30,612 nucleotides of DNA, from IMG/VR virus record IMGVR_UViG_2859827302_000008, one strand, 5' to 3'. The notes under the pieces are model-generated. The model saw nothing but the letters and a program-made list of their open reading frames with translations, was not told the DNA's origin and ran no database searches. This DNA comes from a virus. Its lineage: Duplodnaviria > Heunggongvirae > Uroviricota > Caudoviricetes. How positions within the stretch are numbered: the first letter of the stretch is position 1; every line of letters starts with the position of its first letter. A program made the translations under genes and the position numbers. Shown here piece by piece: positions 1 through 30,612 of this stretch.

Positions 1-660
<660 letters not shown>

Positions 661-2823: not shown

Positions 2824-2915
2824 GTAAGCGTACAGCCTGAACCGTCTGGTCAGAATCTGACGAATTAGACAAAGTGGTGTCCACCAAATAAGTAGTGGGA
2901 ACCAAAGTGTCAGAT

Positions 2916-3296
2916 ATGCAGAAAAATGTGAATCCCGGCAGGCGAAAAGGCTGCCCTAATTATCCTCCCGAATTTAAACAGCAGCTCGTTGCTGCCTCCT
3001 GTGAACCCGGGATATCCATCTCAAAACTTGCTCTTGAAAATGGCATTAACGCCAATCTGTTGTTCAAATGGCGACAACAATGGCGCGAGGGAAAGCTGCT
3101 ATTACCTTCTTCAGAGAGCCCCCAGCTACTTCCTGTGACTCTCGATGCAGCTGCCGAACAGCCAGAATCGCTCGCAGAGGATCCGGAAACCCTCAGTATC
3201 AGCTGTGAGGTAACGTTCCGGCACGGGACGCTCCGCTTCAATGGCAATGTCAGCGAAAAGCTCCTGACTCTGCTGATACAGGAACTGAAGCGATGA
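2916..3296 (+). CDS. tnpA: IS66-family accessory protein TnpA
   Basis: First ORF inside the IS; start taken as ATG 2916 (ORF track uses GTG 2895). Stop overlaps the tnpB start (ATGA). Confidence 0.65.
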   Translation: MQKNVNPGRRKGCPNYPPEFKQQLVAASCEPGISISKLALENGINANLLFKWRQQWREGKLLLPSSESPQLLPVTLDAAAEQPESLAEDPETLSISCEVTFRHGTLRFNGNVSEKLLTLLIQELKR

Positions 3297-3640
3297 TCCC
3301 GTTACCTTCCGGGACCAAAATTTGGCTGGTTGCCGGTATCACCGATATGAGAAATGGCTTCAACGGCCTGGCGGCAAAGGTGCAGACGACGCTGAAAGAC
3401 GATCCGATGTCAGGTCACGTTTTTATCTTCCGTGGGCGTTATGGCAGTCAGGTAAAGCTCCTCTGGTCTACCGGCGATGGACTGTGTCTGCTGACCAAAC
3501 GGCTGGAGCGCGGCCGCTTCGCCTGGCCGTCAGCCCGGGATGGCAAAGTGTTCCTCACACCGGCACAGCTGGCGATGCTCCTTGAAGGTATCGACTGGCG
3601 GCAGCCTAAAAGACTGCTTACGTCCCTGACTATGTTGTAA
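3293..3640 (+). CDS. tnpB: IS66-family Orf2 (TnpB)
   Basis: 115-aa ORF in the conserved middle position of IS66 elements, translationally coupled to tnpA. Confidence 0.7.
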   Translation: MIPLPSGTKIWLVAGITDMRNGFNGLAAKVQTTLKDDPMSGHVFIFRGRYGSQVKLLWSTGDGLCLLTKRLERGRFAWPSARDGKVFLTPAQLAMLLEGIDWRQPKRLLTSLTML

Positions 3641-3688
3641 GCCTCTTTATCCTGGTCGACGCTGAATGAGCCTGGTAATATACCCGGT

Positions 3689-5227
3689 ATGAGCAGCTCA
3701 CTTCCTGACGATATCAATGCACTGAAACGTCTCCTTGCCGAACAGGAGGCGCTGAACCGTGCCCTGCTGGAAAAGCTGAACGAGCGTGAACGCGAAATAG
3801 ACCATCTGCAGGCACAGCTGGATAAGCTGCGCCGGATGAACTTCGGCAGCCGCTCCGAAAAAGTCTCCCGTCGTATCGCACAGATGGAAGCTGACCTGAA
3901 GGCACTTCAGAAAGAAAGTGATACCCTTACCGGTCGGGTTGACGACCCGGCCGTGCAGCGCCCGCTGCGTCAAACCCGCACCCGCAAACCGTTCCCCGAA
4001 TCACTCCCCCGCGATGAAAAACGGCTGCTGCCGGCAGCGTCATGCTGCCCGGAATGTGGAGGCTCACTGAGCTATCCGGGTGAGGATGCCGCCGAACAGC
4101 TGGAGTTGATGCGCAGCGTCTTCCGGGTTATCCGGACTGTACGTGAAAAGCATGCCTGTACTCAGTGCGATGCCATCGTGCAGGCCCCCGCGCCTTCACG
4201 GCCCATCGAGCGGGGTATCGCAGGACCGGGGCTGCTGGCCCGCGTGCTGATCTCAAAGTATGCAGAGCACACCCCGCTGTACCGCCAGTCTGAAATGTAC
4301 GGCCGCCAGGGCGTGGAGCTGAGTCGTTCACTGCTGTCGGGCTGGGTGGATGCATGCTGCCGGCTACTGTCACCGCTGGAAGAAGCGCTTCAGGATTATG
4401 TGCTGACTGACGGTAAGCTCCATGCTGATGACACGCCTGTCCCGGTGCTGTTGCCAGGCAATAAGAAAACGAAGACCGGGCGGTTATGGACCTACGTTCG
4501 TGACGACCGTAACGCCGGGTCAACGCTGGCGCCGGCGGTGTGGTTCGCTTACAGCCCGGACAGAAAAGGCATCCATCCGCAGACCCATCTTGCGGGGTTC
4601 AGTGGTGTACTGCAGGCGGATGCATACGCCGGGTTCAACGAGCTGTACCGGGATGGCCGGATAACGGAAGCCGCCTGTTGGGCTCACGCCCGCCGTAAAA
4701 TCCACGATGTGCACGTTCGCACCCCGTCAGCCCTGACGGAGGAAGCGCTGAAACGGATCGGCGAACTGTACGCCATCGAGGCAGAGATAAGGGGAATGAC
4801 GGCGGAGCAGCGCCTTGCCGAACGTCAGTTGAAAACGAAACCGCTGCTGAAATCCCTGGAAAGCTGGCTGCGTGAAAAGATGAAAACCCTGTCGCGACAC
4901 TCAGAACTGGCGAAAGCGTTCGCATACGCCCTGAACCAGTGGCCGGCGCTGACGTACTATGCAGATGATGGCTGGGCTGAGGCGGACAATAACATCGCTG
5001 AAAATGCGTTGCGGATGGTCAGTCTGGGCCGCAAAAACTACCTGTTCTTCGGTTCGGATCATGGAGGAGAGCGGGGAGCGCTGCTGTACAGCCTGATCGG
5101 GACGTGCAAACTGAACGGAGTGGAGCCAGAAAGCTACCTCCGCTATGTCCTTGACGTCATAGCCGACTGGCCGATAAACCGGGTCGGCGAACTGCTCCCC
5201 TGGCGCGTAGCACTGCCGACTGAATAA
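3689..5227 (+). CDS. tnpC: IS66-family transposase TnpC
   Basis: 512-aa ORF with N-terminal coiled-coil, CxxC…CxxC zinc-finger-like motif (CCPECGG…CTQCD) and DDE-type core, ending just inside the right inverted repeat. Confidence 0.85.
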
Positions 5228-5264
5228 CACATCCCCGTCAATACGGTTCTTGCTGCACGCTTAC

Positions 5265-7039: not shown

Positions 7040-8689
7040 ATGTTAGTCAAGAAAAATAAAAATTATAGTTTATATTTTTTAATTACAAATAATCAACAGA
7101 TATCTGATTCTGGTAATTATATAAAAATAGTCCCATCAAGAAGCGATTGGAATGATTTTGGATATTTGAGTAGAGTCGAAATATCTATTTTTAATAAAAA
7201 AGAGTGTAAGGATATAATTTCACTGAATGGTTATATTGGTTTTTTGAATTCAGAGGAGGAACGAAATGGAAAAGCAGAACTGATAAGGCGAGTGAAAAAA
7301 AAGGAAGAATCTAATTTAAAGGATGAGGGGTTTAATGATTATTTTGTCATGCTTCAGGATATGAATAATTATCGAAGACTAGTAAGATTTTTTGGGGTGA
7401 ATGAATCCAAATATATATTAAATTTCATTAATGATGTTGTTTCTAAGAAAAGTGACGCTAGTGCAGAGAATTTGAGGAAAAAAGCAATCTCTTCTGATAT
7501 CTTTAATAAATCTTTCATTAGAGAGTCTGAGTCGTATTTTACTTTCAAAAATGCAGGAACAGTTCTTTCCGGTATTCAATATGAGGAGTTGGGTAATTTA
7601 TCACAGCACATCAAGATTAGCTATTCGAATAAAGTTAATGAAGAAGATGTATCTTATGTTTTTAATTTTGATCACGAGCATGATTTACCAAAAAGAATTT
7701 CCATAATTATAGGCGAGAATGGTGTAGGAAAAAGCCAAACGCTTAGAGAAATCGCATTGGCTGCGATTAAAGGAAAGGATAATTTGGTGGCTGTAGTTGA
7801 TTCTAACGGTGTGAGCATTGAAGAACGAATTCAAATTAGTAGGCTCATTGCTTTTTCTCCAACAAATGAAAGTAAGTGTTCATTTCCAACCGATAAAAGA
7901 ATAAAATCATTGATATGGTACAAAAGATTGACTTTAAATCGTGAATCAAAATCCAAATTAAACTTGAATGATTTAATAGTGCAACTAGCGAGGAGTAACG
8001 ACGCTATCGGCTATAATCAAAGGTGGAATATATTTGTTGATGCACTGAGTGTTCTAAATAGTAACAACGATTTAGTAATCAAATGTGGCGGTGAAAATTC
8101 ACCATTTGTTAAATTAAATGAGCTTAATTCTCGAGGCGAAGAATCTAGACTATCATTATATTCTGAAATTATTCTCTCTGGCGAGCCTTTGAGGCTTATT
8201 GAAAATAAATGTTACCCTTTGAGTAGTGGGGAAATATCGTTTATTAAGTTTTGTGTACAAGTCTGTTTGTATATTGAGAATGGGACTCTTCTATTAATAG
8301 ATGAGCCAGAAACACATCTCCATCCTTCATTTATTAATAAATTTATGGCATTGCTTGATAATTTATTAGAAAAGACAGGCTCTTCAGCTATCATAGCAAC
8401 GCATTCGGTTTATCTTGTTCGGGAGGTTTTTAAGGAGCAAGTGACAATACTCAGAAGACGAGATGATGGGGTAATTGTTAGCGAAAAACCGAGATTGAGT
8501 ACTTTTGGGGCGAATATAGGAAATATCTCATATTTTGTTTTCGGTGAGAGTGAACCAACTCAAATTTTAAATAAAGTAAAAAACAATATAATTGCAAAGA
8601 ATATGTCTTGGGATGATGTTGAATCTAAATATAGCGAGGACTTATCACTTAATGTATTAACTGCGTTGAGAAATGAAATGGGCAATTGA
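7040..8689 (+). CDS. ABC-type (AAA_15/AAA_21-like) ATPase with unassigned ~220-aa N-terminal domain; candidate defence ATPase (PtuA-like)
   Basis: 549-aa ORF with GAGAGGG ribosome-binding site. Walker A GENGVGKS (aa ~225-232), signature-like LSSGE (~395), Walker B LLLIDEPE (~417-424), H-loop ATHS (~453). Gene is strongly AT-rich. Confidence 0.85.
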   Translation: MLVKKNKNYSLYFLITNNQQISDSGNYIKIVPSRSDWNDFGYLSRVEISIFNKKECKDIISLNGYIGFLNSEEERNGKAELIRRVKKKEESNLKDEGFNDYFVMLQDMNNYRRLVRFFGVNESKYILNFINDVVSKKSDASAENLRKKAISSDIFNKSFIRESESYFTFKNAGTVLSGIQYEELGNLSQHIKISYSNKVNEEDVSYVFNFDHEHDLPKRISIIIGENGVGKSQTLREIALAAIKGKDNLVAVVDSNGVSIEERIQISRLIAFSPTNESKCSFPTDKRIKSLIWYKRLTLNRESKSKLNLNDLIVQLARSNDAIGYNQRWNIFVDALSVLNSNNDLVIKCGGENSPFVKLNELNSRGEESRLSLYSEIILSGEPLRLIENKCYPLSSGEISFIKFCVQVCLYIENGTLLLIDEPETHLHPSFINKFMALLDNLLEKTGSSAIIATHSVYLVREVFKEQVTILRRRDDGVIVSEKPRLSTFGANIGNISYFVFGESEPTQILNKVKNNIIAKNMSWDDVESKYSEDLSLNVLTALRNEMGN

Positions 8690-9554
8690 AATGAATAAAT
8701 TAAAAAGACCTGTTTTTAAAGATTATTCTGCATTTAAAAAACTATCTGCAAATAAGAGATTAAAACATCATTCTGTTCTGAATGGACAGGATACATTTAT
8801 ACTTAATGCATATAGATCGTACATAAAGAATAAAGGGTATCTTAATGTCAATTCTTGTGGCGTATTGAGTAACAATATTGCTGAAGCTTTGAGATATTAT
8901 TATAACAATCCCGCAAAGTGTTTATCTATAATTGATGATATAAGAGCAGCTAATTCTAACTCTCTATGTCCAATGTGTGGTTCAATGCATAGCGGGACTT
9001 TGGATCATGTTTTACCCAAGGAAAACTATCCAGAATTTTCTTTATTCACTAAGAATTTGGTTCCTGCTTGCAAATGTAATACTTTCAAAAGTACTACTAT
9101 AGCTAATTCTGCAGGCCATCGGATGCTGCATCCATATTTTGATAATATATTAAAACAAAGATTAATATGTGCTAATTTTTCTAAATTAGGGCGAACACCT
9201 ACAATTGATGTAAAAATCATAATTGACCCAATGTCACCAGAATATAACAATGTTAAGTATCATCTTGATAATGTTGTTATCAAGAATAATATTAAGGGGT
9301 ATTTGTCTGAACAATGGGAGTCGTTTTACTTATATCCTGAGCTTGTTATTAGAGGACTGAATAAGAGTCTTTCTACTTATAGCGATGTATATGAGTTGTT
9401 GACTCGCGAGTTGTTGCTGTTGGATGAAAAACATAAAGGTAAAAATAATTGGAATTCGGTTTTTGTAGCTGGGTTAATTCGACCTGATGTGATTAGGTGG
9501 ATACTCTGTGAATTACATTTAGGTAACAGAAGTCCAGACGGTCGTCTCATATGA
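8673..9554 (+). CDS. HNH-family nuclease (His-Me finger with Cys4 zinc site); candidate defence effector (PtuB-like)
   Basis: 293-aa ORF overlapping the ATPase stop by 17 nt (alternative start ATG 8691 directly after the stop). Motif CPMCGS…GTLDHVLPKEN…NLVPACKCN…H matches the CxxC…DH…N…CxCN HNH layout. Confidence 0.8.
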   Translation: MKWAIEMNKLKRPVFKDYSAFKKLSANKRLKHHSVLNGQDTFILNAYRSYIKNKGYLNVNSCGVLSNNIAEALRYYYNNPAKCLSIIDDIRAANSNSLCPMCGSMHSGTLDHVLPKENYPEFSLFTKNLVPACKCNTFKSTTIANSAGHRMLHPYFDNILKQRLICANFSKLGRTPTIDVKIIIDPMSPEYNNVKYHLDNVVIKNNIKGYLSEQWESFYLYPELVIRGLNKSLSTYSDVYELLTRELLLLDEKHKGKNNWNSVFVAGLIRPDVIRWILCELHLGNRSPDGRLI

Positions 9555-9590: not shown

Positions 9591-9661
9591 AAATTCATAA
9601 AAACTGCTGCCTATTAATAAAATTTTTTAGCTGAGTTAAAGAACCTCATTTAGTGATTACG

Positions 9662-10696
9662 TTAAGTAGCTAGTTTATAACTATCAAATTTAACAATGTT
9701 CTCACTTACCAATTTATTTATTTCCATCATTCTTTTTTGTAACGGTATTAACTCGTTACGTACAAACACCAGGCTCGCCTTCTCCACATCCCCAAACCCC
9801 CCGACATTATTAGGCATAATCCCCATCATTTGCGGTGGCACACGATGCGCCGCCATCATGTCATCCCGGCTCACGTTCTTGATGTTCAGAAACTCATCCT
9901 TCGCCGCGACTTCTGACAACGGGATGATCTGAAGCCCGTCCTTTTTGCCGTTAGGCGAGTACATAAACAGATTGCGGAAGTTACCTGGTCCTTTGGCGCT
10001 TTTCATCGCATTGCGGAGGTTGTTCACATCCTCCTGGTTTTGCGCGGCATCGGTCATGTACATGATGAAGCCTGCATGACTGCCGTTAATGTAATACTAT
10101 CGGCGGAACAGCGTGGCGGACTCGTTGAGCAGGGCTGACGGAATGGCAGAAAGGTAACCTGGCAGGCCGTAGATCTCTTGGTTGATGTCCGGTTCCATCA
10201 GATGAAAGATGCTTCCTTTCGTGAACTGATACGGCTGCGTGGTCATGCCGTATTGCACAAACCAGTAGGTATCCAGGTCTAATCCGCGTCGGGTGTATTT
10301 TGCCAGAGCAGGCTCAAGAGCGATGACCTCTCCGAACCGGTTTGTGCGTTTCTCCAGGTAAGCGTTACCAAATACCAGATAATCCTGCACAAAACGTGAA
10401 AAAGCCTGCTGGCTGAGCAGCGGGTGAGGGATGTAGGTACTGATCAGAATGTTGCATTTCACCGCAATTGGTGAACTGTGATGCACGGCGGCGCGGAAGG
10501 TGCGCGCCAGTCCGTCAAAACTCACTGGCGGCTCATACCAGCGATCTGTCTGTACGCATTCCACATAGTCCAGTAGTTCACGGCGGTCCAGAACCGGAAC
10601 GGGATCGCCGAAGCTGAATGCTTCGGCTGAAGTCTGGTTTTTATGCTGGGTCTGTTTCGTCGCCGCAGCGCGGTTCTTCTTACTCTTTCCCATCAA
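9662..10696 (-). pseudogene. Q: P2-type portal protein gene Q with one in-frame amber codon (TAG at 10097..10099)
   Basis: Two minus-strand ORFs (10097..10696 and 9662..10063) share one frame and are separated only by the TAG plus 11 sense codons. Combined length (~344 codons) fits a P2-type portal. Confidence 0.85.
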
Positions 10697-12459
10697 AAAA
10701 TCTCCACAATATTGCTGGTATTGGCGGACTCGCCCTGCAGCGGTTCGTTAAACAGTGCGTGCATTGTTGCCCAGGCCAGATCGGCATGGCTGGCTTCTTC
10801 GCTGCGGCTGGCTTCATAGGTCGGGCGGTTGCCGCTGGCGGTGGTGGCGCGACGGATTGCCATGAATGACTGCGCAATGTCGGTGTGCCCGGCGTCAAAC
10901 TCAAGACGGCGGTGGCTGATAATGTCGTAGGCCTTGAGTACCAGGGCGTTTTTAACGTTGGGGTTGTAGACAAACTCCCGGACGGCAGGAAAAAACGCTT
11001 TCACGTTCTCGTAAACCCCGTGACCAACGCCGGTTGAGTCGATGCCGATATAGGTCACGTTGTACTGTTCAGTCAGTTTTTTGATGGCGTAAGCCTGGGC
11101 GCGAAAGTCCATTCCGCGCCACTGGTGACGCTCAAGAATGCGGAACTTACCGCCTGGCACGGCTGGCGGTGCCACCACCACGCATCCGGCGCTGTCGCCG
11201 TTCTGCGTACCTTTTGCCGGGTCATAACCGATCCACACTTCGCGCCAGCCAAACGGGCGCAGGGCCAGTGCATGAAAGTCGGTCCAGACTTCCCAGCTGT
11301 CCACCATGCACGCCTGCAATTCGCTGAGCGGGAACACGGACGCGAGATCGTCCACGAACTCGCACATCAGCAGGTTCTGGTATTCGTCAGGGCTGTACTC
11401 CATGCGCAACTGGTCAAGGTCGAACAGGTTACAGGCGCCGCGCACCGCATCTTCCACGGTGACTATCTGGCGGTATTGCCCGTCTGCGCACAGCAGGCCG
11501 GGGGCCAGATTGCTGTGGGACAGGTCGATGTCCACCTTGTCAGCTTTGTTGCGCCCACGGTTGAACAGCGCACCGGACCAGAACGGATAAGCACTGTGGG
11601 TCAGACTGGATGGTGTGGAAAAATAGGTCTGCCGCCATTTCTTGTGAATAGCCATACCAGAAGCCACTTTGCGTAGCTCCTGAAATTTCGGTATCCAGAA
11701 ATATTCATCCAGATACAGGTTACCGTGATAACTCTGGGCAGTGCGGGCATTGGTGCCGAGGAAATACAGTGTGGCCCCGTTGGGAAGCACCATCGGATCG
11801 CCTTTCAGCTCCACCTCCACTTCTTTGGCAAAGTCGATGATGTACTGTTTGAAGACGTGGGCCTGTGCCTTACTGGCAGAAAGGAAAATCTGGTTACGTC
11901 CGGTAAGCAGGGCGTCAATCAGGGCTTCACGGGCAAAATAGAAGGTCGCGCCGATCTGGCGTGACTTCAGCAGGTTGCGGATGCGGTTGGTTTTTCCGGC
12001 TTCCCACCAGTGGCGCTGGTAGTTGAACATGGAGGAATGGAAATTTTTTTCCAGCTTCTCAATCTGGTCATCGGTGAAAACATTCTTTTCAGGCTGACGG
12101 CGTGGGCCTTTGTTGCGGTTGGCGACGTTAGGGTTTAAGTCGGCTTCGTTGCCGCCATTGTTAAACTTGCCGATCCGCGCGTGGCGCTCAGACTGGCGCG
12201 CCAGCAGGTCAATATCTTTGAAATCTTTCCCTTCTTTGTGCTCCTTCATGATGAGCTGGCAGTAGCGTGCGGCGGTGGTGAGCTGCATCTGATCCAGAGG
12301 CCCATAGTCACCCCACTTGTCGCGTTTTTTTCAGCTGTAAACGGTTGCAACTTTCTCGCCCAGCATTTCAGCAATGCGGGCTACGCGGTATCCCTGAAAG
12401 TACAGCAGCATGGCCTGCCGACGGGGATCGAGATCTGCGGGTGTCAGTGTGGTGTTCAT
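10693..12459 (-). pseudogene. P: P2-type terminase large (ATPase) subunit gene P with in-frame opal codon (TGA at 12331..12333)
   Basis: ATG at 12459 opens MNTTLTPADLDPRRQAMLLYFQGYRVARIAEMLGEKVATVYS, then TGA, then the same frame continues into the 531-aa ORF 10693..12288. Confidence 0.85.
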
Positions 12460-14513: not shown

Positions 14514-15164
14514 ATGAGCCTGAGTCCCGCACGGCAGCATCGCCTGCGCGTTCAGGCTGAACAGGTCGCCCGTGAGGGTGGCAGTGTTCGCCACGCATCG
14601 GGCTATGACCTGATGCTGCTGCAACTGGCGGAAGACCGCCGCCGTCTCAAGGGCGTTCAGTCCACGGTCAAAAAAGCGGAAATCAAAGTGGAGCTGCTGC
14701 CGAAGTACGCCGCCTGGGCGGAGGGTGTCCTGGCTGCCGGAGGCGCTCAACAGGATGACGTGCTGATGTACGTGATGTTGTGGCGCATTGATGCCGGAGA
14801 TTATGCCGGGGCGCTGGAGATCTGGCGTCATGCCCTGCGTCATGGATGGGTGATGCCGCTGGGCAACCGCAACGTGCAGACCGTGCTGACAGAGGAAATG
14901 GCAGATGCAGCGCAGAGCGCAATGCTTGCCGCCACCGGCTTTGATGCCGATCTGTTGCTGCAGACGCTGGAGCTGACAGACGGTCTGGATATGCCGGACC
15001 AGTCACGGGCACGTCTGCATAAAGCGATTGGCGCGGTCCTGAGTGAAAGCAATCCGGCTTCCGCCCTTAATCATCTCAACCATGCGTTACAGCTCGATCC
15101 CCGCTGTGGCGTGAAAAAAGACAAACAGCAGCTGGAGCGCAGACTGCGCAATGACAGCCGCTGA
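14514..15164 (+). CDS. M: Terminase small (endonuclease) subunit (gpM-like)
   Basis: 216-aa ORF after N; synteny and similarity to P2 gpM. Confidence 0.8.
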   Translation: MSLSPARQHRLRVQAEQVAREGGSVRHASGYDLMLLQLAEDRRRLKGVQSTVKKAEIKVELLPKYAAWAEGVLAAGGAQQDDVLMYVMLWRIDAGDYAGALEIWRHALRHGWVMPLGNRNVQTVLTEEMADAAQSAMLAATGFDADLLLQTLELTDGLDMPDQSRARLHKAIGAVLSESNPASALNHLNHALQLDPRCGVKKDKQQLERRLRNDSR

Positions 15165-15259
15165 CAGAACGTGCCCCCGCGCACGGGCGGCACGGGGTGG
15201 CGAAAGGCACAGCCACATCAAAACCCCGTCCACCGCCCTTTATTTCAGGAGAAAGCAGC

Positions 15260-15706
15260 ATGAAGTTTGTTGCGCCAGAACAGGCACCGGAACAGGCGGA
15301 AATCATTAGAAATACGCCGTTCTGGCCTGATGTGGACCTGTCGGAGTTTCGCAGTGTCATGCGCACTGACGGCACGGTGACGCAGCCGCGTTTAAAGTAG
15401 GTTGCACTGTCGGCAATTTCGGAGGTTAACGCAGAGCTGTATGAGTTTCGCAGACGCCAGCAGATGCTGGGGTATGCGTCGGAACAGCTGGACGGGAAAA
15501 GTGAGCGCATTCAGCACTATTTCAACGCGGTTTACTGCTGGGCTCGCGCCATGCTCAACGAACGTTTCCAGGACTATGACGCCACGGCATCCGGTGCGAA
15601 GCGGGGCGAAGAACTGGCGGAAGCAAGCGGTGATTTGTGGCGTGACGCCCGCTGGGCCATCAGCCGGGTGCAGGACGCGCCGCACTGCACAGTGGAGCTT
15701 ATCTGA
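15260..15706 (+). pseudogene. L: Head completion protein gene L with in-frame amber codon (TAG at 15398..15400)
   Basis: ATG 15260 with AGGAG ribosome-binding site. Translation …NTPFWPDVDLSEFRSVMRTDGTVTQPRLK-stop-VALSAISEVNAELYEF… continues in the same frame to 15706 and resembles P2 gpL on both sides of the stop. Confidence 0.8.
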
Positions 15707-15909
15707 TGAAAGTGCGTGCGCATCAGTATGACACGGTGGACGCGCTTTGCTGGCGTCATTACGGGCGCACGCAGGGTGTCACGGAGCAGGTACTGAAGGC
15801 AAATCCGGGGCTTGCCGAATACGGCCCCTTTGTACCTCACGGGCTGCAGGTGGAGCTGCCGGACATTCCGACCACCACCACCGTGCAGACCGTCCAGCTA
15901 TGGGACTGA
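15706..15909 (+). CDS. X: Tail protein X (gpX-like)
   Basis: 67-aa ORF whose start overlaps the L stop (ATGA); size and position match P2 gpX. Confidence 0.75.
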   Translation: MKVRAHQYDTVDALCWRHYGRTQGVTEQVLKANPGLAEYGPFVPHGLQVELPDIPTTTTVQTVQLWD

Positions 15910-15912: not shown

Positions 15913-16128
15913 ATGACGCTTGAGCGAATCAGCGCCTTTATCACGTATTGCATCGCCGTCGTGCTGGCCTGGCTGGGCGATTTGTCCATCAAGGATGCCT
16001 CAACGCTGGGCGGCCTGATGATTGGTGTGCTGATGCTGGCTATCAACTGGTACTACAAACACAAAGCCTACCAGCTTCTGCGCGACGGGCAGATCTCGCG
16101 GGAGGACTATGAATCCATCAATCGTTAA
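15913..16128 (+). CDS. Y: Holin, small two-TMD type (pinholin-like)
   Basis: 71-aa ORF with two hydrophobic segments and a charged C-terminus, immediately upstream of the endolysin. Confidence 0.65.
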   Translation: MTLERISAFITYCIAVVLAWLGDLSIKDASTLGGLMIGVLMLAINWYYKHKAYQLLRDGQISREDYESINR

Positions 16129-16621
16129 ACGCTGCCTTGTCGGGGCCGTGCTGGCTATTGCTGCCACGCTGCCGGGTTTTCAGCAGCTTCACACCTCCGT
16201 GGAGGGACTGAAACTGATTGCCGATTACGAAGGTTGTCGTCTGCAGCCGTATCAGTGCAGCGCGGGTGTCTGGACCGACGGTATTGGTAATACGTCGGGC
16301 GTCATTCCTGGCAAAACCATTACGGAGCGACAGGCAGCAGAAGGGCTGATCTCCAACGTGCTGCGTGTGGAGCGGGCGCTGGAAAGGTGTGTGAAGCAAC
16401 AGCCGCCGCAGAAGGTGTATGACGCTGCGGTGTCGTTTGCCTTCAACGTGGGTACGGGCAATGCCTGCAGTTCCACGCTGGTGAAATTGCTCAATCAGCG
16501 GCGCTGGGCGGATGCGTGCCGACAGTTGCCGCGCTGGGTTTATGTGAAAGGTGTTTTTAATCAGGGGCTGGATAACCGCCGTGCGCGGGAGATGGCCTGG
16601 TGTTTACAGGGAGCAAACTGA
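16109..16621 (+). CDS. K: Endolysin, T4-lysozyme-like muramidase with N-terminal signal-anchor-release (SAR)-like segment
   Basis: Translation has the E…D…T catalytic arrangement (…DYEGCRLQPYQCSAGVWTDGIGNT…), closely resembling the P1 Lyz-type SAR endolysin as recalled. N-terminal weakly hydrophobic stretch CLVGAVLAIAATLPGF. Confidence 0.85.
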   Translation: MNPSIVKRCLVGAVLAIAATLPGFQQLHTSVEGLKLIADYEGCRLQPYQCSAGVWTDGIGNTSGVIPGKTITERQAAEGLISNVLRVERALERCVKQQPPQKVYDAAVSFAFNVGTGNACSSTLVKLLNQRRWADACRQLPRWVYVKGVFNQGLDNRRAREMAWCLQGAN

Positions 16622-16622
16622 A

Positions 16623-17000
16623 ATGAAAAAGAAATTAATCAGCGGGCTGTTTCTGATGTTATGGATGGCGCTGTTAATCGCAGCAATAGTGTATCCGCAG
16701 GGGATTTTTCCGGTACTGGCAGCGTCCGGCGTTTGGGTAGCCTGTTTACTGACATGGGCGGTAATTCCGGTAGCACTGGCTTCGTTAATTAAGAATGGCC
16801 CGCTCTGGCAGGAGTTGAGGGCATCTTTACTGAAGACAATTACCCGAAAAGAAAACGTATTTATCAGCTGGGTGATACGATTGCTGATTGTCGTCAGTCT
16901 CGCCTGGACGGGGTGGGCCATTACCCTGGTCTTTTATCTGCTGACCGTTATTGCCTTCTGGATCACCCGTAATCAGATGGCGCAACAGGTAGCCGCATGA
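16623..17000 (+). CDS. lysA: LysA-like lysis-timing membrane protein
   Basis: 125-aa ORF from ATG 16623 with about four hydrophobic helices, in the lysis cassette. Confidence 0.6.
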   Translation: MKKKLISGLFLMLWMALLIAAIVYPQGIFPVLAASGVWVACLLTWAVIPVALASLIKNGPLWQELRASLLKTITRKENVFISWVIRLLIVVSLAWTGWAITLVFYLLTVIAFWITRNQMAQQVAA

Positions 17001-17425
17001 ACCGGTTGCTGCTGGTTGTGCTGGCGTTATTATTGGCGGCGCTGGGCTGGCAGACGTGGCGGCTGGCTGATGCCAGCCAGACCATCAGCACGCAGGCAGA
17101 CGAGCTGCAGAGCAAAAGCCAGGCACTGGCAAAGAGCAACAGCCAGCTTATCAGCCTGTCCATTCTGACTGAAACCAATAACCGGGAGCAGGCGCGGCTC
17201 TATGCCGAAGCAGAACAGACCAGTGTACTGCTGAGACAACGACAACGCCGGATTGAGGAACTGAAACGTGAGAACGAGGATTTACGTCGCTGGGCTGATA
17301 CTCCTTTGCCTGCTGACATTATCCGGCTGCGGGAACGTCCGGCACTCACCGGAGGTGCAGCTTACCGTCAGTGGTTGTCCGCGAGTGACGCCGTGTCGGC
17401 TGGAGCAGGCAGCGCCGCGCACTAA
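16997..17425 (+). CDS. lysB: LysB, Rz-like inner-membrane spanin
   Basis: 142-aa ORF with N-terminal TMD and coiled-coil-rich periplasmic part. Confidence 0.7.
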   Translation: MNRLLLVVLALLLAALGWQTWRLADASQTISTQADELQSKSQALAKSNSQLISLSILTETNNREQARLYAEAEQTSVLLRQRQRRIEELKRENEDLRRWADTPLPADIIRLRERPALTGGAAYRQWLSASDAVSAGAGSAAH

Positions 17426-17558
17426 CGGTGATCTGAATGCGTTGCTGGATGAAACGGAGGCCGCCTGGGCGGTCTGTGCAGACAAAGTGGACATGATTAT
17501 TGCGTGTCAGGAGCGAAATAGTGAACAAACCACAATCCCTGCGCCACGCCCTCAATAA
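17268..17558 (+). CDS. lysC: LysC, Rz1-like outer-membrane lipoprotein spanin (overlapping lysB in another frame)
   Basis: Signal peptide with lipobox LTLSGC, proline-rich mature part, overlapping the 3' end of lysB. Confidence 0.6.
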   Translation: MRTRIYVAGLILLCLLTLSGCGNVRHSPEVQLTVSGCPRVTPCRLEQAAPRTNGDLNALLDETEAAWAVCADKVDMIIACQERNSEQTTIPAPRPQ

Positions 17559-17952: not shown

Positions 17953-18346
17953 ATTGCAGAAGGTGGACGACTGGCTGAGTGCATTATTGGCGAATCTGGA
18001 GCCAGCCGCAAGAAGCCGCATGATGCGCCAGCTGGCGCAGGAACTGCGCCGGACACAGCAGCAGAACATCAGGATGCAGCGCAATCCAGATGGCAGCAGT
18101 TATGAGCCGCGCAGGGTAACAGCACGCAGCAAAAAGGGGCGCATCAAACGTCAGATGTTTACAAAGCTGCGCACCACAAAATACCTGAAAACTGCAGCCA
18201 GCGCCGATTCTGCCAGCGTACAGTTTGAAGGTAGGGTGCAGCGCATTGCCCGTATTCACCATTACGGCTTGAGTGATCGCGTCAGTCGAAAAGGTATTTA
18301 TACCATCTATGCGAAAAGGCAGTTATTAGGTTTTAATGTCCGGTAA
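17945..18346 (+). pseudogene. S: Tail completion protein gene S, 3' end replaced by the IS1 terminus
   Basis: GTG-initiated ORF. The last codons and the stop (TAA 18344..18346) lie at the junction with and inside the IS1 inverted repeat that starts at 18342. Confidence 0.7.
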
Positions 18347-18396
18347 TGCTGCCAACTTACTGATTTAGTGTATGATGGTGATTTTAAGGTGCTTGC

Positions 18397-18672
18397 GTGG
18401 CTTCCATTTCCATCAGATGTCCTTCCTGCTCCGCTATTGAAGGCGTGGTGCGTAACGGCAAAAGCACTGCCGGACATCAGCGCTATCTCTGCTCTCATTG
18501 CCGTAAAACATGGCAATTACAGTTCACTTACACCGCCTCTCAGCCCGGTACGCACCAGAAAATCATTGATATGGCCATGAATGGCGTCGGATGTCGCGCC
18601 AGTGCACGCATTATGGGCGTTGGCCTCAACACGGTTTTACGTCACTTAAAAAACTCAGGCCGCAGTCGGTAA
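18397..18672 (+). CDS. insA: IS1 InsA
   Basis: 91-aa [26 protein letters not shown]… with zinc-finger and HTH regions, characteristic of IS1 InsA. Confidence 0.9.
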
Positions 18673-19094
18673 CCTCGCGCATACAACCGGGCAGTGATGT
18701 GATTGTCTGCGCTGAAATGGACGAACAGTGGGGCTACGTCGGTGCTAAATCACGTCAGCGCTGGCTGTTTTACGCGTATGACAGGATACGGAGGACGGTT
18801 GTGGCGCACGTCTTCGGTGAACGCACTCTGGCCACACTGGAGCGTCTTCTGAGCCTGCTGTCGGCCTTTGAGGTCGTGGTATGGATGACGGATGGCTGGC
18901 CGCTGTATGAATCACGCCTGAAGGGAAAGCTGCACGTTATCAGCAAGCGTTACACTCAGCGCATTGAGCGACATAATCTGAATCTGAGACAACATCTGGC
19001 AAGGCTGGGACGGAAGTCACTGTCGTTCTCAAAATCGGTGGAGCTGCATGACAAGGTCATCGGGCATTATCTGAACATAAAACACTATCAGTAA
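18591..19094 (+). CDS. insB: IS1 InsB reading frame (expressed as InsAB' transposase by -1 frameshift)
   Basis: 167-aa ORF overlapping insA in the -1 frame, ending 15 bp before the right inverted repeat. Confidence 0.85.
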
Positions 19095-19109
19095 GTTGGC
19101 AGCATTACC

Positions 19110-19624
19110 ATGCAGCCCTCACAATATAGTTAAAAGCGACATTTCGTGGGCGTGTTTCATTCGCACCTGCAGGTTTAGTCGTTGCCGCAACAACACCACC
19201 CTCTGTAATAGCCGGGTTGGGAATTGGGTAATTATCGAAGTCAATGGCCGGAGACAGGGGCGTGATTTGTTTTAAAATCGTGGTGCCTGTAAAACTTTCC
19301 AGAGTCTGGTCGTTAGTTCGTGAAGTCCAGATTCCCCAATAGTGGTTATGACTGACAATCGCACCGTCCTGAAGCGTTAATAATCCCCTTCCGTTATCCA
19401 CTCCACGTCCGTCATCCCAGCCACGAATAAACTCACCGCGTAAATCAGGCAATTTATTTGTCGGGTAAGCCTTTGCCAGTTCCGGGTATTCTTCAGCAGA
19501 AAAAGCCGCACCATTGCATTTCAGCCAGCCTGTCGGCGGAGTGGCTGAAGGCCACGGAACAGGCACACCAACAGGTAATGCAGAGCCTTCTCCCAAACCA
19601 ACGTTTAAGAAAATGCAGAGATAA
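19110..19624 (-). pseudogene. Orphan tail-fibre variable C-terminal segment (Sv'-type, inverted orientation), lacking its constant 5' partner
   Basis: Minus-strand translation …PVPWPSATPPTGWLKCNGAAFSAEEYPELAKAYP…ETRPRNVAFNYIVRAAW is typical of invertible-segment tail-fibre tips. The 5' end begins within the gix-like site and the 3' end abuts IS1, which supplies the stop codon. Confidence 0.65.
19599..19624. promoter_or_regulatory. gix/pix-like DNA-invertase crossover site
   Basis: TTCTCCCAAACCAACGTTTAAGAAAA versus recalled gix consensus TTATCCAAAACCTCGGTTTACAGGAA. It lies inside the tail-fibre reading frame, next to the invertase gene. Confidence 0.5.
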
Positions 19625-19668
19625 TGGCTAACTGGCATCATCTCCGGTTTTTATTCAGGGGATTGATC

Positions 19669-20235
19669 ATGCTTATTGGCTATGTACGCGTGTCAACAAA
19701 TGACCAGAACACCGATTTGCAACGTAATGCACTGAACTGCGCGGGATGTGAGCGGATTTTTGAGGATAAAATCAGTGGCACTAAGCCCGACAGACCGGGG
19801 CTTAAAAAACTGCTCAGGACACTATCGGCAGGAGACACGCTGGTTGTCTGGAAGCTGGACAGACTGGGACGCAGTATGCGGCATCTTGTTACGCTGATAG
19901 AAGAGTTGCGCCAGCGTGGTGTGAATTTCCGAAGCCTGACTGACAGTATTGATACCAGTACCCCAATGGGCCGTTTCTTTTTTCACGTCATGGGGGCTCT
20001 GGCTGAAATGGAACGTGAACTGATAGTTGAACGTACCAGAGCAGGGCTGGCTGCAGCTCGTGCCAAAGGCAGAGTAGGTGGACTCCGTCCTAAGTTGACC
20101 ACCGAACAGTGGGCACAGATTGGACGTTTACTCGAGGCCGGAGAATCAAGACAGCGTATTGCACTGATTTTTGATGTGGGCGTTTCTACCATTTATAGAA
20201 AATTTCCGGCGAATGAGAGCAATGAATCGCCCTGA
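19669..20235 (+). CDS. pin: Serine-recombinase DNA invertase (Pin/Gin/Hin/Cin family)
   Basis: Translation MLIGYVRVSTNDQNTDLQRNAL…VVWKLDRLGRSM…GALAEMERELI… carries the catalytic Ser in YVRVST and a C-terminal HTH. Start taken as ATG 19669. Confidence 0.9.
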   Translation: MLIGYVRVSTNDQNTDLQRNALNCAGCERIFEDKISGTKPDRPGLKKLLRTLSAGDTLVVWKLDRLGRSMRHLVTLIEELRQRGVNFRSLTDSIDTSTPMGRFFFHVMGALAEMERELIVERTRAGLAAARAKGRVGGLRPKLTTEQWAQIGRLLEAGESRQRIALIFDVGVSTIYRKFPANESNESP

Positions 20236-20377: not shown

Positions 20378-21550
20378 ATGGCTCAGGATTACCACCACGG
20401 GGTGCGCGTTGTTGAAGTCAACGAAGGCACCCGATCCATTACCACGGTGAGCACCGCCATCGTGGGTATGGTCTGCACGGGCGATGATGCCGATGCAAAA
20501 ATGTTTCCTCTTAATAAACCTGTGCTGATCACTGATGTGCTGACCGCCAGCGGTAAAGCGGGTGAGTCTGGCACGCTGGCCCGTTCGCTGGATGCCATCG
20601 CTGACCAGGCAAAACCCGTGACCGTTGTTGTGCGTGTGCCGCAGGGTGAAACGGAAGAAGAAACCACAACCAATATCATTGGCGCAGTGACCGCCGAGGG
20701 TAAAAAAACAGGTATGAAAGCCCTGTTATCTGCCCAGTCACAGCTCGGCGTTAAACCGCGCATTCTCGGCGTGCCAGGTCACGACACGAAGGCGGTAGCT
20801 ACTGAGTTGCTGAGCGTGGCGCAAAGCCTGCGTGGATTTGCTTACCTGTCAGCGTATGGTTGCAAGACGGTGCAGGAAGCAATCACTTACCGTGAAAACT
20901 TCAGTCAGCGTGAAGGAATGCTGATCTGGCCCGACTTTACTGGCTGGGACACGGTGCTGAATGCCGAAGCAACGGCTTATGCCACCGCCCGTGCGCTCGG
21001 TCTGCGCGCTAAAATTGATGAGCAGACCGGATGGCACAAAAGCCTGTCCAACGTGGGCGTGAACGGTGTCACCGGAATTTCTGCTGATGTGTTCTGGGAT
21101 CTGCAGAACCCGGCAACCGATGCAGGTCTGCTTAACCAGAACGATATCACCACGCTTATCCGCAAAGACGGTTTCCGCTTCTGGGGTTCCCGCTGTCTGA
21201 GCGATGATCCGCTCTTTGCCTTCGAAAACTACACCCGCACGGCGCAGGTGCTGATGGACACGATGGCAGAAGCGCACATGTGGGCGGTGGACAAACCGCT
21301 GAACCCGTCGCTGGCCCGCGACATTATCGAAGGTATCCGCGCCAAAATGCGTAGCCTGGTCAGTCAGGGCTATCTCATTGGTGGTGATTGCTGGCTGGAC
21401 GAGTCGGTGAACGATAAAGACACGCTGAAAGCCGGGAAACTCACCATCGATTACGACTACACGCCAGTGCCGCCACTTGAAAACCTGATGCTGCGTCAGC
21501 GCATCACCGATCAGTACCTGGTGAATTTCTCCAGCCAGGTCAGCGCGTAA
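20378..21550 (+). CDS. FI: Tail sheath protein (gpFI-like)
   Basis: 390-aa ORF with AGGAGG ribosome-binding site; size and position match P2 FI. Confidence 0.9.
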
Positions 21551-21559
21551 GGGGACAAC

Positions 21560-22075
21560 ATGGCTTTACCACGCAAATTAAAACACCTGAACCTGTTTAA
21601 CGACGGGAACAACTGGCAGGGGATCGTTGAGTCGCTGACGCTGCCGAAATTCACCCGCAAATATGAGAAGTATCGCGGCGGCGGTATGCCCGGAGCGGTG
21701 GATGTGGATCTGGGACTGGATGACAGTGCACTGGATACAGAATTTTCCATTGGTGGTACTGAACTGCTGCTGTTTAAGCAGATGGGCAAAGCCACGGTGG
21801 ATGGCATCCAGCTGCGCTTTACCGGCTCTATTCAGCGTGATGATACCGGGGAAGTGCAGGCCGTGGAGCTTGTGGTGCGTGGACGTCACAAAGAAGTAGA
21901 TTCCGGCGAGTGGAAGACGGGCGAAAGCAACACTACCAAAGTGACCAGTACCAACAGCTACGCGAAGCTGACCATCAATGGTGAGGTGCTCTATGAAGTG
22001 GACCTGATCAACATGGTGGAAATTGTGGACGGTGTGGACCTGATGGAAGCGCACCGCAACGCCCTCGGCCTCTGA
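21560..22075 (+). CDS. FII: Tail tube protein (gpFII-like)
   Basis: 171-aa ORF directly after FI; matches P2 FII. Confidence 0.9.
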   Translation: MALPRKLKHLNLFNDGNNWQGIVESLTLPKFTRKYEKYRGGGMPGAVDVDLGLDDSALDTEFSIGGTELLLFKQMGKATVDGIQLRFTGSIQRDDTGEVQAVELVVRGRHKEVDSGEWKTGESNTTKVTSTNSYAKLTINGEVLYEVDLINMVEIVDGVDLMEAHRNALGL

Positions 22076-22129
22076 TGTATCTGAACGGCGCGGAATGCCG
22101 CGCCAGAACCTAATTTACAGGACAACAAA

Positions 22130-22432
22130 ATGAGCGATAAGCAGACTGAAAAGACCATTCAACTGGATACTCCCATCATGCGCGGTAAAACAGAAATTAC
22201 CGAAATTGTGTTGCGTAAACCGCAGTCCGGTGCGCTGCGCGGCACACGCCTGCAGGCCATTATGGATATGGATGTGAACGCGATGATGACCGTGATCCCC
22301 CGCATCTCCAGTCCGGCACTGACTGCACAGGAAATTGCAGAGATGGACCCGGCAGATCTCACTGCCATGTCGGTTGAGGTTGTCACTTTTTTGTTGAAGA
22401 AGTCGGTGCTTGCCGGTTTACCGACAGCCTGA
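22130..22432 (+). CDS. E: Tail assembly chaperone E
   Basis: 100-aa ORF between the tube and tape-measure genes, containing the slippery heptamer near its 3' end. Confidence 0.75.
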   Translation: MSDKQTEKTIQLDTPIMRGKTEITEIVLRKPQSGALRGTRLQAIMDMDVNAMMTVIPRISSPALTAQEIAEMDPADLTAMSVEVVTFLLKKSVLAGLPTA

Positions 22433-22566
22433 CGGTTGACGATCTGGTGGCTGATATCGCCACCATCTTTCACTGGCCGCCATCCGTTACTGACGTTATG
22501 CCGCTGACCGAAGTGCTGGAATGGCGGGATAAAGCGATTCAGAGAAGCGGGGCCAGCCATGAGTGA
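22130..22566 (+). CDS. E': E+E' product made by programmed -1 frameshift at T_TTT_TTG (22387..22393)
   Basis: Slippery heptamer is in X_XXY_YYZ phase with the E frame. The -1 frame stays open to TGA 22564..22566 and encodes …SLTVDDLVADIATIFHWPPS…, overlapping the T start. Confidence 0.6.
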
Positions 22567-25500
22567 CAATAACCTGCGTCTGCAGGTGATTCTTAATGCG
22601 GTTGACAAACTCACCCGCCCATTTCGATCCGCGCAGGCCAGTTCAAGAGAACTGGCTGCTGCTGTCAAAAAATCCCGCGATGCAATAAAGCAGCTTGATC
22701 AGGCCGGGAGCAGTCTGGACAGCTTCCGAAAGCTGCAGGCAGAAAATCAGAAATTAGGCGACAGGCTGAACTATGCCCGCCAGCGTGCAAATTTGCTCAG
22801 TCAGGAACTGGGAGCGATGGGGCCGCCTTCGCAACGTCAGGTTGTTGCTCTGGGCCGTCAACGGCTGGCTGTTCAGCGCCTGGAAGAACGCCAGAAAAAG
22901 CTGCAGCAGCAGACGGCGCTTGTGCGTGCAGAACTTTATCGTGCTGGTATTTCAGCTAATGATGGCGCCAGTGCGACGGCCCGCATTACCCGTGAAACGA
23001 TGCGTTATAACAGGCAGCTTTCTGAGCAGGAAGCGAGGTTACGACGTGTCGGGGAGCAACAGCGAAAAATGCACGCCGCCCGGGGGGCTTACGCCAGGCG
23101 TCTTGAGGTAAGGGATCGTATTGCAGGTGCCGGAGCCACCACCACGGCTGCAGGGCTGGCAATGGGCGCACCAGTGATGGCGGCAGTAAAAAGCTATACC
23201 AGCATGGAAGATGCCATGAAAGGTGTGGCAAAGCAGGTCAATGGTCTGCGTGACGATAATGGCAACCGCACTGCGCGTTTTTACGAAATGCAGGGTGCCA
23301 TCAAGGCTGCCAGCGAACAGTTGCCGATGGAAAACGGTGCTGTGGACTTCGCCGCACTGGTTGAAGGTGGTGCGCGCATGAACGTCGCAAACCCTGACGA
23401 CAGCTGGGAAGACCAGAAACGTGACCTGCTGGCCTTCGCCAGCACGGCGGCAAAGGCGGCAACAGCCTTTGAACTGCCAGCGGATGAACTGTCAGAAAGT
23501 CTGGGGAAAATCGCCCAGCTCTACAAAATCCCTACCCGCAATATTGAGCAGCTCGGTGATGCGCTGAACTATCTGGATGATAACGCCATGTCGAAAGGGG
23601 CGGACATCATTGATGTCATGCAACGCCTGGGCGGTGTGGCTGACCGTCTGGATTATCGTAAAGCGGCGGCGCTGGGTTCCACCTTCCTGACACTCGGCGC
23701 TGCGCCTGAGGTTGCAGCCAGTGCAGCAAACGCGATGGTGCGTGAATTGTCCATTGCCACCATGCAAAGCAAGAGTTTCTTTGAAGGGATGAATCTGCTG
23801 AAACTCAATCCAGAAGTGATTGAAAAGCAGATGACGAAGGATGCGATGGGAACTATCCAGCGGGTGCTGGAGAAGGTGAATGCGCTGCCACAGGATAAGC
23901 GCCTGTCTGCCATGACCATGTTGTTTGGTAAAGAGTTTGGCGATGACGCAGCGAAACTGGCAAACAACCTGCCGGAACTTCAGCGCCAGTTAAAACTGAC
24001 TGCGGGCAATGATGCGCTCGGTTCCATGCAGAAAGAATCCGACATCAACAAGGATTCACTTTCTGCTCAGTGGTTGCTGGTCAAAACCGGAGCACAGAAC
24101 ACCTTCAGCAGCCTGGGGGAAACGCTGCGCCAGCCGCTGATGGATATTCTGTACACGGTGAAAAGCGTCACGGGGGCGTTGCGTCGCTGGGTGGAAGCTA
24201 ACCCGGAACTGACGGGCACTCTGATGAAAGTAGCCGCTGTGGTAGCTGCCGTTACCGTGGGCCTCGGCACCTTAGCGGTGGCGCTGGCTGCAGTGCTGGG
24301 GCCGCTGGCAGTCATCCGTCTGGGATTCTCTGTGCTGGGTATCAAAACGTTACCTTCCGTTACGGCAGCAGTAACCCGAACCAGCAACGCGTTGTCCTGG
24401 CTGGCTGGCGCACCACTGGCACTGCTGCGACGCGGGCTTGCTTCATCGGGCAACGCTGCAGGTTTACTTACTGCGCCGTTGTCGTCTTTGCGCCGCACGG
24501 CATCACTGACGGGAAATGTCCTGAAAACTGTAGCAGGTGCGCCGGTTGCACTTTTGCGGTCTGGATTATCCGGTTTACGTGCGGTTGCTGTGATGTTTAT
24601 GAATCCACTGGCGGTACTACGCGGCGGACTGGCTGCCACAGGCACGGTGCTGCGTATGCTCGCATCCGGTCCACTGGCGATGCTGCGCGTTGCCCTGTAT
24701 GCCGTCTCTGGTCTGTTAGGTGCTCTGCTCAGTCTGATAGGTCTTGTGGTTACTGCACTGGCGGGTGTGGCGCTGGTTGTCTGGAAATACTGGCAGCCCA
24801 TCACCACATTTCTCGGTGGCGTGGTGGAAGGATTCAAAGCGGCGGCAGGTCCTGTCAGTGCCGCGTTCGAACCGCTTAAGCCTGTGTTCCAGTGGATTGG
24901 CGACAAAGTACAGGCGCTGTGGGGCTGGTTTACTGATCTGCTGACGCCCGTTAAGTCGACCTCTGCCGAACTGCAGAGTGCAGCGGCAATGGGGCGACGA
25001 TTCGGGGAGGCTCTGGCGGAAGGGCTGAATATGGTCATGCATCCGCTGGACTCCCTGAAATCCGGCGTTTCCTGGTTGCTGGAGAAACTTGGCATTGTCA
25101 GTAAAGAGGCCGCAAAGGCGAAACTGCCGGAAAGCGTGACGCGTCAGCAACCTGCGACGGTGAATGCAGACGGTAAAGTGATGATGCCATCGGGTGGTTT
25201 TCCGTCATGGGGATATGGCTTTGCGGGGATGTATGACAGCGGCGGGTATATCCCGCGCGGGCAGTTTGGCATCGTCGGTGAAAACGGGCCGGAAATTGTT
25301 AACGGCCCGGCAAATGTGACCAGCCGGAGAAATACAGCTGCACTGGCTGCCGTTGTTGCCGGAATGATGGGTGTTGCTGCTACGCCAGCAGAGCTTCCAC
25401 CGTTGCACCCTTTGGCACTTCCCGCGAAAGGCGGTGAAGCGATGGTGAGTCGTGCAGCCACTGTGCCGCCCGTTCAACGGATTGAGGCACCGATGCAGAT

Positions 25501-25636
25501 CATCATTCAAACGCAGCCAGGACAAAGTGCGCAGGATATTGCGCGGGAGGTGGCCCGCCAGCTTGATGAACGTGAACGCAGGCTGAAGGCAAAAGCCAGG
25601 AGTAACTACAGCGATCAGGGGGGATACGACGCATGA
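22559..25636 (+). CDS. T: Tail tape-measure protein (gpT-like)
   Basis: 1025-aa ORF; coiled-coil N-terminal half, Ala/Leu/Gly-rich repetitive hydrophobic middle, located after E/E'. Confidence 0.9.
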   Translation: MSDNNLRLQVILNAVDKLTRPFRSAQASSRELAAAVKKSRDAIKQLDQAGSSLDSFRKLQAENQKLGDRLNYARQRANLLSQELGAMGPPSQRQVVALGRQRLAVQRLEERQKKLQQQTALVRAELYRAGISANDGASATARITRETMRYNRQLSEQEARLRRVGEQQRKMHAARGAYARRLEVRDRIAGAGATTTAAGLAMGAPVMAAVKSYTSMEDAMKGVAKQVNGLRDDNGNRTARFYEMQGAIKAASEQLPMENGAVDFAALVEGGARMNVANPDDSWEDQKRDLLAFASTAAKAATAFELPADELSESLGKIAQLYKIPTRNIEQLGDALNYLDDNAMSKGADIIDVMQRLGGVADRLDYRKAAALGSTFLTLGAAPEVAASAANAMVRELSIATMQSKSFFEGMNLLKLNPEVIEKQMTKDAMGTIQRVLEKVNALPQDKRLSAMTMLFGKEFGDDAAKLANNLPELQRQLKLTAGNDALGSMQKESDINKDSLSAQWLLVKTGAQNTFSSLGETLRQPLMDILYTVKSVTGALRRWVEANPELTGTLMKVAAVVAAVTVGLGTLAVALAAVLGPLAVIRLGFSVLGIKTLPSVTAAVTRTSNALSWLAGAPLALLRRGLASSGNAAGLLTAPLSSLRRTASLTGNVLKTVAGAPVALLRSGLSGLRAVAVMFMNPLAVLRGGLAATGTVLRMLASGPLAMLRVALYAVSGLLGALLSLIGLVVTALAGVALVVWKYWQPITTFLGGVVEGFKAAAGPVSAAFEPLKPVFQWIGDKVQALWGWFTDLLTPVKSTSAELQSAAAMGRRFGEALAEGLNMVMHPLDSLKSGVSWLLEKLGIVSKEAAKAKLPESVTRQQPATVNADGKVMMPSGGFPSWGYGFAGMYDSGGYIPRGQFGIVGENGPEIVNGPANVTSRRNTAALAAVVAGMMGVAATPAELPPLHPLALPAKGGEAMVSRAATVPPVQRIEAPMQIIIQTQPGQSAQDIAREVARQLDERERRLKAKARSNYSDQGGYDA

Positions 25637-26118: not shown

Positions 26119-27215
26119 ATTTCAGCTCTGAACTGCTTAACAAAGGCAACAAAACTCCGGCATTCAGCATCAGTATTGAAGGCAGGGATATCACCACTGT
26201 GCTGGACAACCGCCTGATGGGGCTGACGCTGACGGATAACCGGGGCTTTGAGGCGGACTAGCTTGATCTGGAGCTGGACGACGCCGATGGAAAAATCGTG
26301 CTGCCGCGCCGTGGGGCTGTCATTACGCTGGCGCTGGGCTGGAAGGGACAGCCGCTTTTCCCGAAAGGGGCATTCACGGTGGACGAGATTGAACACACTG
26401 GCGCACCGGATCGCCTGACTATCCGGGCGCGAAGTGCTGATTTTCGTGAAACGCTGAATACCCGCCGTGAAAAGTCGTGGCACAAGACCACCGTTGGGGA
26501 AGTGGTGAAGGAAATAGCTGCGCGGCACAAACTGAAGATGGCATTGGGTGAAGACTTGTCGGATAAACTCGTGGAGCATATAGACCAGACTAATGAGAGT
26601 GACGGCAGTTTTTTGATGCGGCTGGCGCGCCAGTACGGTGCTATTGCGTCGGTGAAAAATGGCAATCTGTTATTCATCCGGCAGGGGCAGGGTAAAAGCG
26701 CCAGCGGTAAACCACTACCGGTGATCACTATCACACGCAAGGACGGCGACAGTCACCGCTTTACCCTGGCAGATCGCGGAGCTTACACGGGCGTCATTGC
26801 CAGCTGGTTGCATACCCGCGAACCCGCGAAGAAAGAAAGCACCACGGTGAAGCGTAAGCGCAGGACTAAGAAGCAGAAGAAAGAGCCGGAAGCGAAGCAG
26901 GGCGATTACCTGGTGGGTACGGATGAAAACGTGCTGGTACTTAATCGCACTTATGCCAACCGGAGCAACGCCGAACGGGCAGCGAAAATGCAGTGGGAAC
27001 GCCTGCAACGCGGCGTTGCATCATTCTCGCTACAACTGGCGGAAGGGCGGGCAGATCTCTACACAGAAATGCCTGTGAAGGTCAGTGGCTTTAAACAGCC
27101 GATAGATGATGTGGAATGGACCATTACGACTCTGACGCATACTGTCAGCCCGGATAACGGTTTTACGACCAGTCTGGAGCTTGAAGTGAGGATTGATGAT
27201 TTCGAAATGGAATGA
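26115..27215 (+). pseudogene. D: Tail protein gene D with in-frame amber codon (TAG at 26259..26261)
   Basis: GTG 26115 opens VNFSSELLNKGNKTPAFSISIEGRDITTVLDNRLMGLTLTDNRGFEAD, then TAG, then the same frame continues LDLELDDADG… through the 305-aa ORF to 27215. Confidence 0.8.
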
Positions 27216-30303: not shown

Positions 30304-30612
30304 GGTAATGACTCCAACTTACTGATAGTGTTTTATGTTCAGATAATGCCCGATGACCTTGTCATGCAGCTCCACCGATTTTGAGAACGACAGTGACTTC
30401 CGTCCCAGCCTTGCCAGATGTTGTCTCAGATTCAGATTATGTCGCTCAATGCGCTGAGTGTAACGCTTGCTGATAACGTGCAGCTTTCCCTTCAGGCGTG
30501 ATTCATACAGAGGCCAGCCATCCGTCATCCATACCACGACCTCAAAGGCCGACAGCAGGCTCAGAAGACGCTCCAGTGTGGCCAGAGTGCGTTCACCGAA
30601 GACGTGCGCCAC
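30304..30612 (-). mobile_element. IS1, partial (continues beyond window), inverted relative to the first copy
   Basis: Terminus GGTAATGACTCCAACTTACTGAT at 30304 followed by the insB reading frame on the minus strand. Confidence 0.9.
30319..30612 (-). CDS. insB: IS1 InsB, 3' portion (partial at window edge)
   Basis: 97-aa translation identical to the C-terminal part of InsB from the IS1 at 18591..19094. Confidence 0.85.

Follow-up and report, generated by a model that had tools for sequence, protein, structure and literature searches.

Gene L in P2 and in related prophages

In phage P2, gpL (NP_046762, annotated as 'head-tail adaptor Ad1'), a member of the head completion/stabilization family PF05926, is encoded between the terminase subunit gene M and the tail gene X. 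Laboratory amber mutants of P2 gene L are classical conditional lethals, carrying single lesions in intact phages on suppressor hosts. In Shigella, IS expansion and pseudogene accumulation are well known, as are cryptic and defective prophages. The DNA analyzed here is a stretch of 30,612 nt given as one strand (IMG/VR record IMGVR_UViG_2859827302_000008), hereafter the window, and positions are numbered from its first letter. It contains a gene of the same family at the same place as in P2, with 37% identity to P2 gpL; compared with the P2 protein, the gene is interrupted at codon 47 and six conserved residues are missing. The window gene is much nearer to those of Elveevirus-type phages (Cartapus and Klebsiella phage 4LV2017, 95–99.7% DNA identity) than to that of P2. 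The gene hit and the kind of codon change are the same as in the laboratory P2 L ambers, whereas the amber codon in the window is natural and one of many lesions in a non-viable remnant. When compared with cryptic prophages of Shigella, the window is typical, with four IS elements, multiple premature stops and a dN/dS of about 1, and shows nothing distinctive. The nearest intact relative is the ybjL-adjacent prophage of Escherichia coli UPEC-245U/190328 (NZ_CP049845; 99.6–99.8% nucleotide identity), which has the same integration site, gene order and PDC-M01 gene pair. In that prophage every structural gene is intact and L encodes 154 amino acids, whereas the window copy differs from it by four nonsense changes, one in-frame deletion, two internal IS elements, a 4.6-kb deletion and a truncated left arm.

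The amber codon and the deletion in gene L

The disrupted gpL frame extends from 15260 to 15706 on the plus strand and lies between the M ORF (14514–15164) and the X ORF (15706–15909), the same order as in P2, Cartapus and the UPEC-245U prophage. It begins with an ATG at 15260 that is preceded by a GGAG Shine-Dalgarno sequence at 15248–15251. Positions 15390–15400 read gtttaaagTAG, and the TAG (15398–15400, plus strand) is codon 47 counted from this ATG, corresponding to a Q47* change from CAG through a C to T substitution at 15398. Beyond the TAG, the same frame is free of stops until the TGA at 15704–15706. The translation with Gln restored matches the Pfam family PF05926 (Phage_GPL) over profile positions 1–139 of 139, with a score of 146 bits against a cut-off of 27, and the alignment with P2 gpL crosses the stop (E = 8e-35), a Glu residue facing the TAG. 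The first-pass annotation had described an in-frame amber codon in a gpL-type frame with similarity to P2 gpL on both sides of the stop, and the position of the TAG in frame with ATG 15260, together with the single domain spanning it, bears out both statements. It had also called the frame otherwise continuous; the frame is indeed open to the TGA, but it is not intact, as an 18-bp in-frame deletion had been overlooked. Alignment with Cartapus, Klebsiella phage 4LV2017 and the UPEC-245U prophage places the junction of this deletion at 15479/15480 on the plus strand, where CGCTGGCTGAGGTTCCGG, encoding LAEVPA, has been lost. The L-x-x-V-P-A segment, located in the middle of the protein, is kept in P2 and in 78 of 78 orthologous loci from the GTDB representative genomes of other species.

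The stop leaves two ORFs on the plus strand, an N-terminal gpL fragment of 46 amino acids (15260–15400, profile positions 1–31) and a C-terminal fragment of 80 amino acids (15464–15706, profile positions 65–139) that begins at an internal Met. The gpL frame continues through the 63 nt separating them, which code for conserved residues of the protein, and no recognizable ribosome-binding site is present in cgccagcagATG, upstream of the 80-codon ORF. Translation from ATG 15260 would end after 46 residues, and any product of the downstream ORF would be without the N-terminal third and the LAEVPA motif. Judging from these reading frames, functional gpL is probably not made. A sequence search of the PDB with the intact gpL gave no solved relative, so that no structural statement is possible on the truncated part.

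Gene L in orthologues and searches for the amber allele

Close relatives of the 801-bp L region occur in 58 phage records and in 991 from E. coli. Among the matches listed (30 per search), L is annotated as one 'head completion/stabilization protein' gene, with the terminase endonuclease subunit on one side and tail protein X on the other. A CAG codon stands opposite the window TAG in phage Cartapus, Klebsiella phage 4LV2017 and the UPEC-245U prophage. Position 47 is a sense codon in all 78 orthologues (Q in 44, H in 24, L in 5, F in 3, as well as E, D and Y). Their ORF is uninterrupted and is exactly 154 amino acids long in 40 of the 78, the rest differing mainly by a later start of the match. 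The protein cluster formed at 90% identity has 349 members; of the 14 others listed, 13 have a length of 154 amino acids and one has 159. An alignment of orthologues had been proposed as a check of the amber codon, with two separate genes at this place as the outcome that would speak against it; the orthologues are each one gene, with an amino acid encoded at position 47, and the intact relatives carry one 154-amino acid gene.

The exact TAG context was present in none of 839 records of E. coli complete genomes, the best match (98.5%) having one mismatch in 65 bp, and the deletion junction as a single piece was likewise not found among the E. coli complete genomes searched. Exact searches for the TAG allele gave no match in the GTDB species-representative genomes and two contigs only in IMG/VR.

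The surrounding prophage remnant

The window is a chromosomal segment carrying a P2-like prophage remnant and is not a phage genome. The remnant, which is of the Elveevirus type, spans 660–27524 on the plus strand, and lies next to the chromosomal genes ybjL-ybjM-grxA. Its left edge at 660 lies within the Dam methylase gene, where the left arm is truncated by the 3' part of an IS3-family transposase gene (1–659, plus strand), and the int/cI/cII arm is outside the window. An IS66-family element (TnpA, TnpB and transposase; 2825–5264, plus strand) is inserted in the replication endonuclease gene A, with the target duplication CATTGACG[G] on its flanks. An IS1 of 768 bp with the ends GGTAAT...ATTACC (18342–19109, plus strand) is found in place of ~4.6 kb of the UPEC-245U prophage, and the sequence lost comprises the end of S, a DUF5677 gene, V, W, J, I and the 5' part of H. 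In total, four IS elements are present in the 30.6-kb window. The complete genome of a laboratory amber-mutant phage was also considered as the source of the DNA, since 30.6 kb is about the size of phage 186 or PSP3, and was ruled out by the IS elements, the chromosomal genes ybjL, ybjM and grxA, and the absent baseplate module.

Several further features of the segment were observed. Bordering the internal IS1, positions 19110–19604 hold a 3' segment of the tail-fibre gene H that is inverted relative to UPEC-245U, and beside it a Gin/Cin-type DNA invertase gene is intact at 19624–20235 with one R139L change; IS1 later truncated the invertible fibre segment, which had been captured in the opposite orientation. 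A second IS1 at 30304–30612 cuts the chromosomal glutaredoxin 1 gene grxA and matches the internal IS1 at 305 of 309 bases in reverse orientation; the homology to the UPEC-245U locus ends within grxA. The lysis cassette (holin, lysozyme, LysA-like, LysB and LysC; 15913–17558) is full-length in the window strain, as are the tail sheath, tube, E and tape-measure genes (20378–25636), the sheath and tape measure being split in other strains of the clade.

Compared with the UPEC-245U prophage, premature stops are present in three genes besides L: a TAG in the portal gene Q (K199*, 10097–10099, minus strand), a TGA in the large terminase gene P (W43*, 12331–12333, minus strand) and a TAG in the tail gene D (Q49*, 26259–26261, plus strand).

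Recurrence of the lesions across Shigella assemblies

The prophage remnant is carried by Shigella dysenteriae/boydii strains, judging by the names under which its exact gpL fragments are recorded. Ten further loci were fetched, from the complete chromosomes CP026823, CP026825, CP026828, CP026840 and CP026842 (which we take to be PacBio assemblies), the older drafts AKNG01, UYIT01 and PSSQ01, and the Logan assemblies of the public sequencing runs ERR5982242 and ERR6005886. One of them, CP026828.1, is 100% identical to window positions 5464–25706. All ten have T at the site of 15398 and the 18-bp deletion, and the portal K199* and both IS1 junctions are equally common to the ten, whereas the terminase W43* is seen only in the window and CP026828.1. 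The exact 46- and 80-amino acid fragments are called as genes in 351 and 317 index blocks of public assemblies, respectively. For the contigs carrying them, numbering about 300 and 286, the sources give the names Shigella boydii, S. dysenteriae and S. dysenteriae CDC 74-1112. Strain-specific further splits affect T, FI and the C terminus of the portal protein, and an extra IS1 is found; the T splits recur in more than one assembly in some cases, and some splits in single-technology long-read assemblies may be errors. As the assemblies differ in their further lesions, decay is ongoing, and the overall pattern is one of continuing decay following an old inactivation.

Substitution pattern of the prophage

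Substitutions between the window and UPEC-245U copies were polarised with phage Cartapus and the prophage of E. coli Z1322HEC0003 as outgroups. The 55 prophage substitutions comprise 47 on the window lineage, 6 on the UPEC lineage and 2 that are unresolved, and all four nonsense changes (in Q, P, L and D) are derived in the window lineage. At the site of 15398, a C is present in UPEC-245U and in both outgroups, indicating that the T is the derived base. The window-lineage changes include 39 in coding sequence (12 synonymous, 23 missense and 4 nonsense) and 8 in intergenic sequence; C>T and G>A, the changes favoured by the usual mutational bias, account for 25 of the 39 in coding sequence. With the observed spectrum of mutations imposed on all sites of these genes, the neutral expectation was 12.1 synonymous, 24.9 missense and 2.0 nonsense changes, corresponding to a dN/dS of ~1.02. 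The four nonsense changes are slightly above the expected 2.0, a difference that is not significant (P(≥4) = 0.14). The closeness of these counts to the neutral expectation indicates that the structural genes drift without constraint. Since the two copies diverged, the Shigella copy has gained 47 substitutions and the UPEC-245U copy 6. Neutral drift of a dead copy would fit this strong asymmetry, as would a larger number of generations or faster fixation in the Shigella lineage.

Origin of the amber codon

The TAG is almost certainly a spontaneous C>T nonsense mutation that truncates gpL, and L is a pseudogene in a defunct, drifting P2-like prophage of the Shigella dysenteriae/boydii lineage. 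The transition would have converted Gln-47 to an amber codon at a time when selection on L was already gone or was soon lost, and the hit in L may even have preceded the other lesions, in a phage that was then viable. The other lesions of the prophage, together with its dN/dS of about 1, identify the L amber as a pseudogene lesion and as neither a conditional-lethal amber nor a recoding site.

Among the alternatives, an early and positively selected disarming lesion in L that prevented lethal induction, as opposed to a neutral hit in a dead element, is improbable. The occurrence of the TAG in all ten assemblies makes it old relative to the private terminase W43*, but it has this distribution in common with the portal stop, the IS1 deletion and the 18-bp deletion, so that the ten give no order among the four. 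Loss of gpL would also leave lysis possible, and the substitution pattern matches pure neutrality.

It is very unlikely that the amber codon is functional, with a suppressor tRNA or programmed readthrough giving full-length gpL as in a laboratory conditional-lethal mutant of a viable phage. CAG to TAG is the classic amber change and the frame is open to its normal stop. Against this, ARAGORN finds no tRNA gene within the window, the stop is absent from the 78 orthologues, the 839 E. coli records and the GTDB species representatives, and the stop in terminase gene P is a TGA, which an amber suppressor could not read. Restoring gpL would still yield no virion, given the loss of baseplate and fibre genes and the IS element that interrupts gene A. 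L itself has also lost the conserved LAEVPA motif, and the carriers are natural clinical Shigella lineages and not a phage stock.

A sequencing or assembly error, the true base being C and L being intact, has next to no probability. The codon differs from that of the closest relative by a single base, but recurrence of the T in ten independent assemblies from different projects and sources, including complete chromosomes, drafts and Logan assemblies, shows that it is not a read error, and the exact 46-amino acid fragment is present on 300 contigs with the 18-bp deletion accompanying the TAG. That the stop is a genuine boundary between two genes normally present here is just as hard to credit, since the 46- and 80-amino acid ORFs are annotated by gene callers in carrier genomes but a single Pfam domain crosses the stop, every intact relative is annotated as one 154-amino acid gene, and the nucleotides between the ORFs keep conserved gpL residues in frame.

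A candidate defence pair in the remnant

A two-gene candidate defence system is intact at 7040–9554 on the plus strand and consists of a 549-amino acid AAA ATPase and a 293-amino acid HNH-type partner. The best PADLOC matches are PDC-M01A and PDC-M01B (E = 3e-55 and 1e-33), followed by PtuA (Septu). The slot holding the pair has a low GC content (0.30–0.37) and lies between cos (at about 6924) and the portal gene. On the window lineage, the pair has 2 synonymous and 0 missense changes, where the rest of the prophage would predict ~3.5 missense changes (P ~0.03, post hoc), and it is intact in 8 of 10 related assemblies. Tentatively, and with the odds against it, selection may maintain this Septu-like ATPase and HNH pair amid the neutral decay of the virion genes, L included; if so, the L amber would be a by-product of the reduction of the prophage to a defence island. 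In the spacer between the convergent HNH and portal genes, five substitutions, four of them transversions, fall within 46 bp (9610–9655). All five are derived on the window lineage, and either a small patch of recombination or the remodelling of a terminator could explain the cluster.

Significance

The locus is nothing new in kind: a cryptic prophage carries a broken gene of the P2 gpL family, and the fragments of this gene are already in public databases. It raises no new biological question, and its significance lies mostly in annotation: gene L deserves a pseudogene label in place of the two small genes for a 'capsid completion protein' under which public records misname its fragments. On the evidence of its sequence, the element would best be regarded as a P2-like remnant that is not inducible. 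It offers a clean example of neutral prophage decay, with a dN/dS of about 1 and an order of lesions that is datable across Shigella strains.
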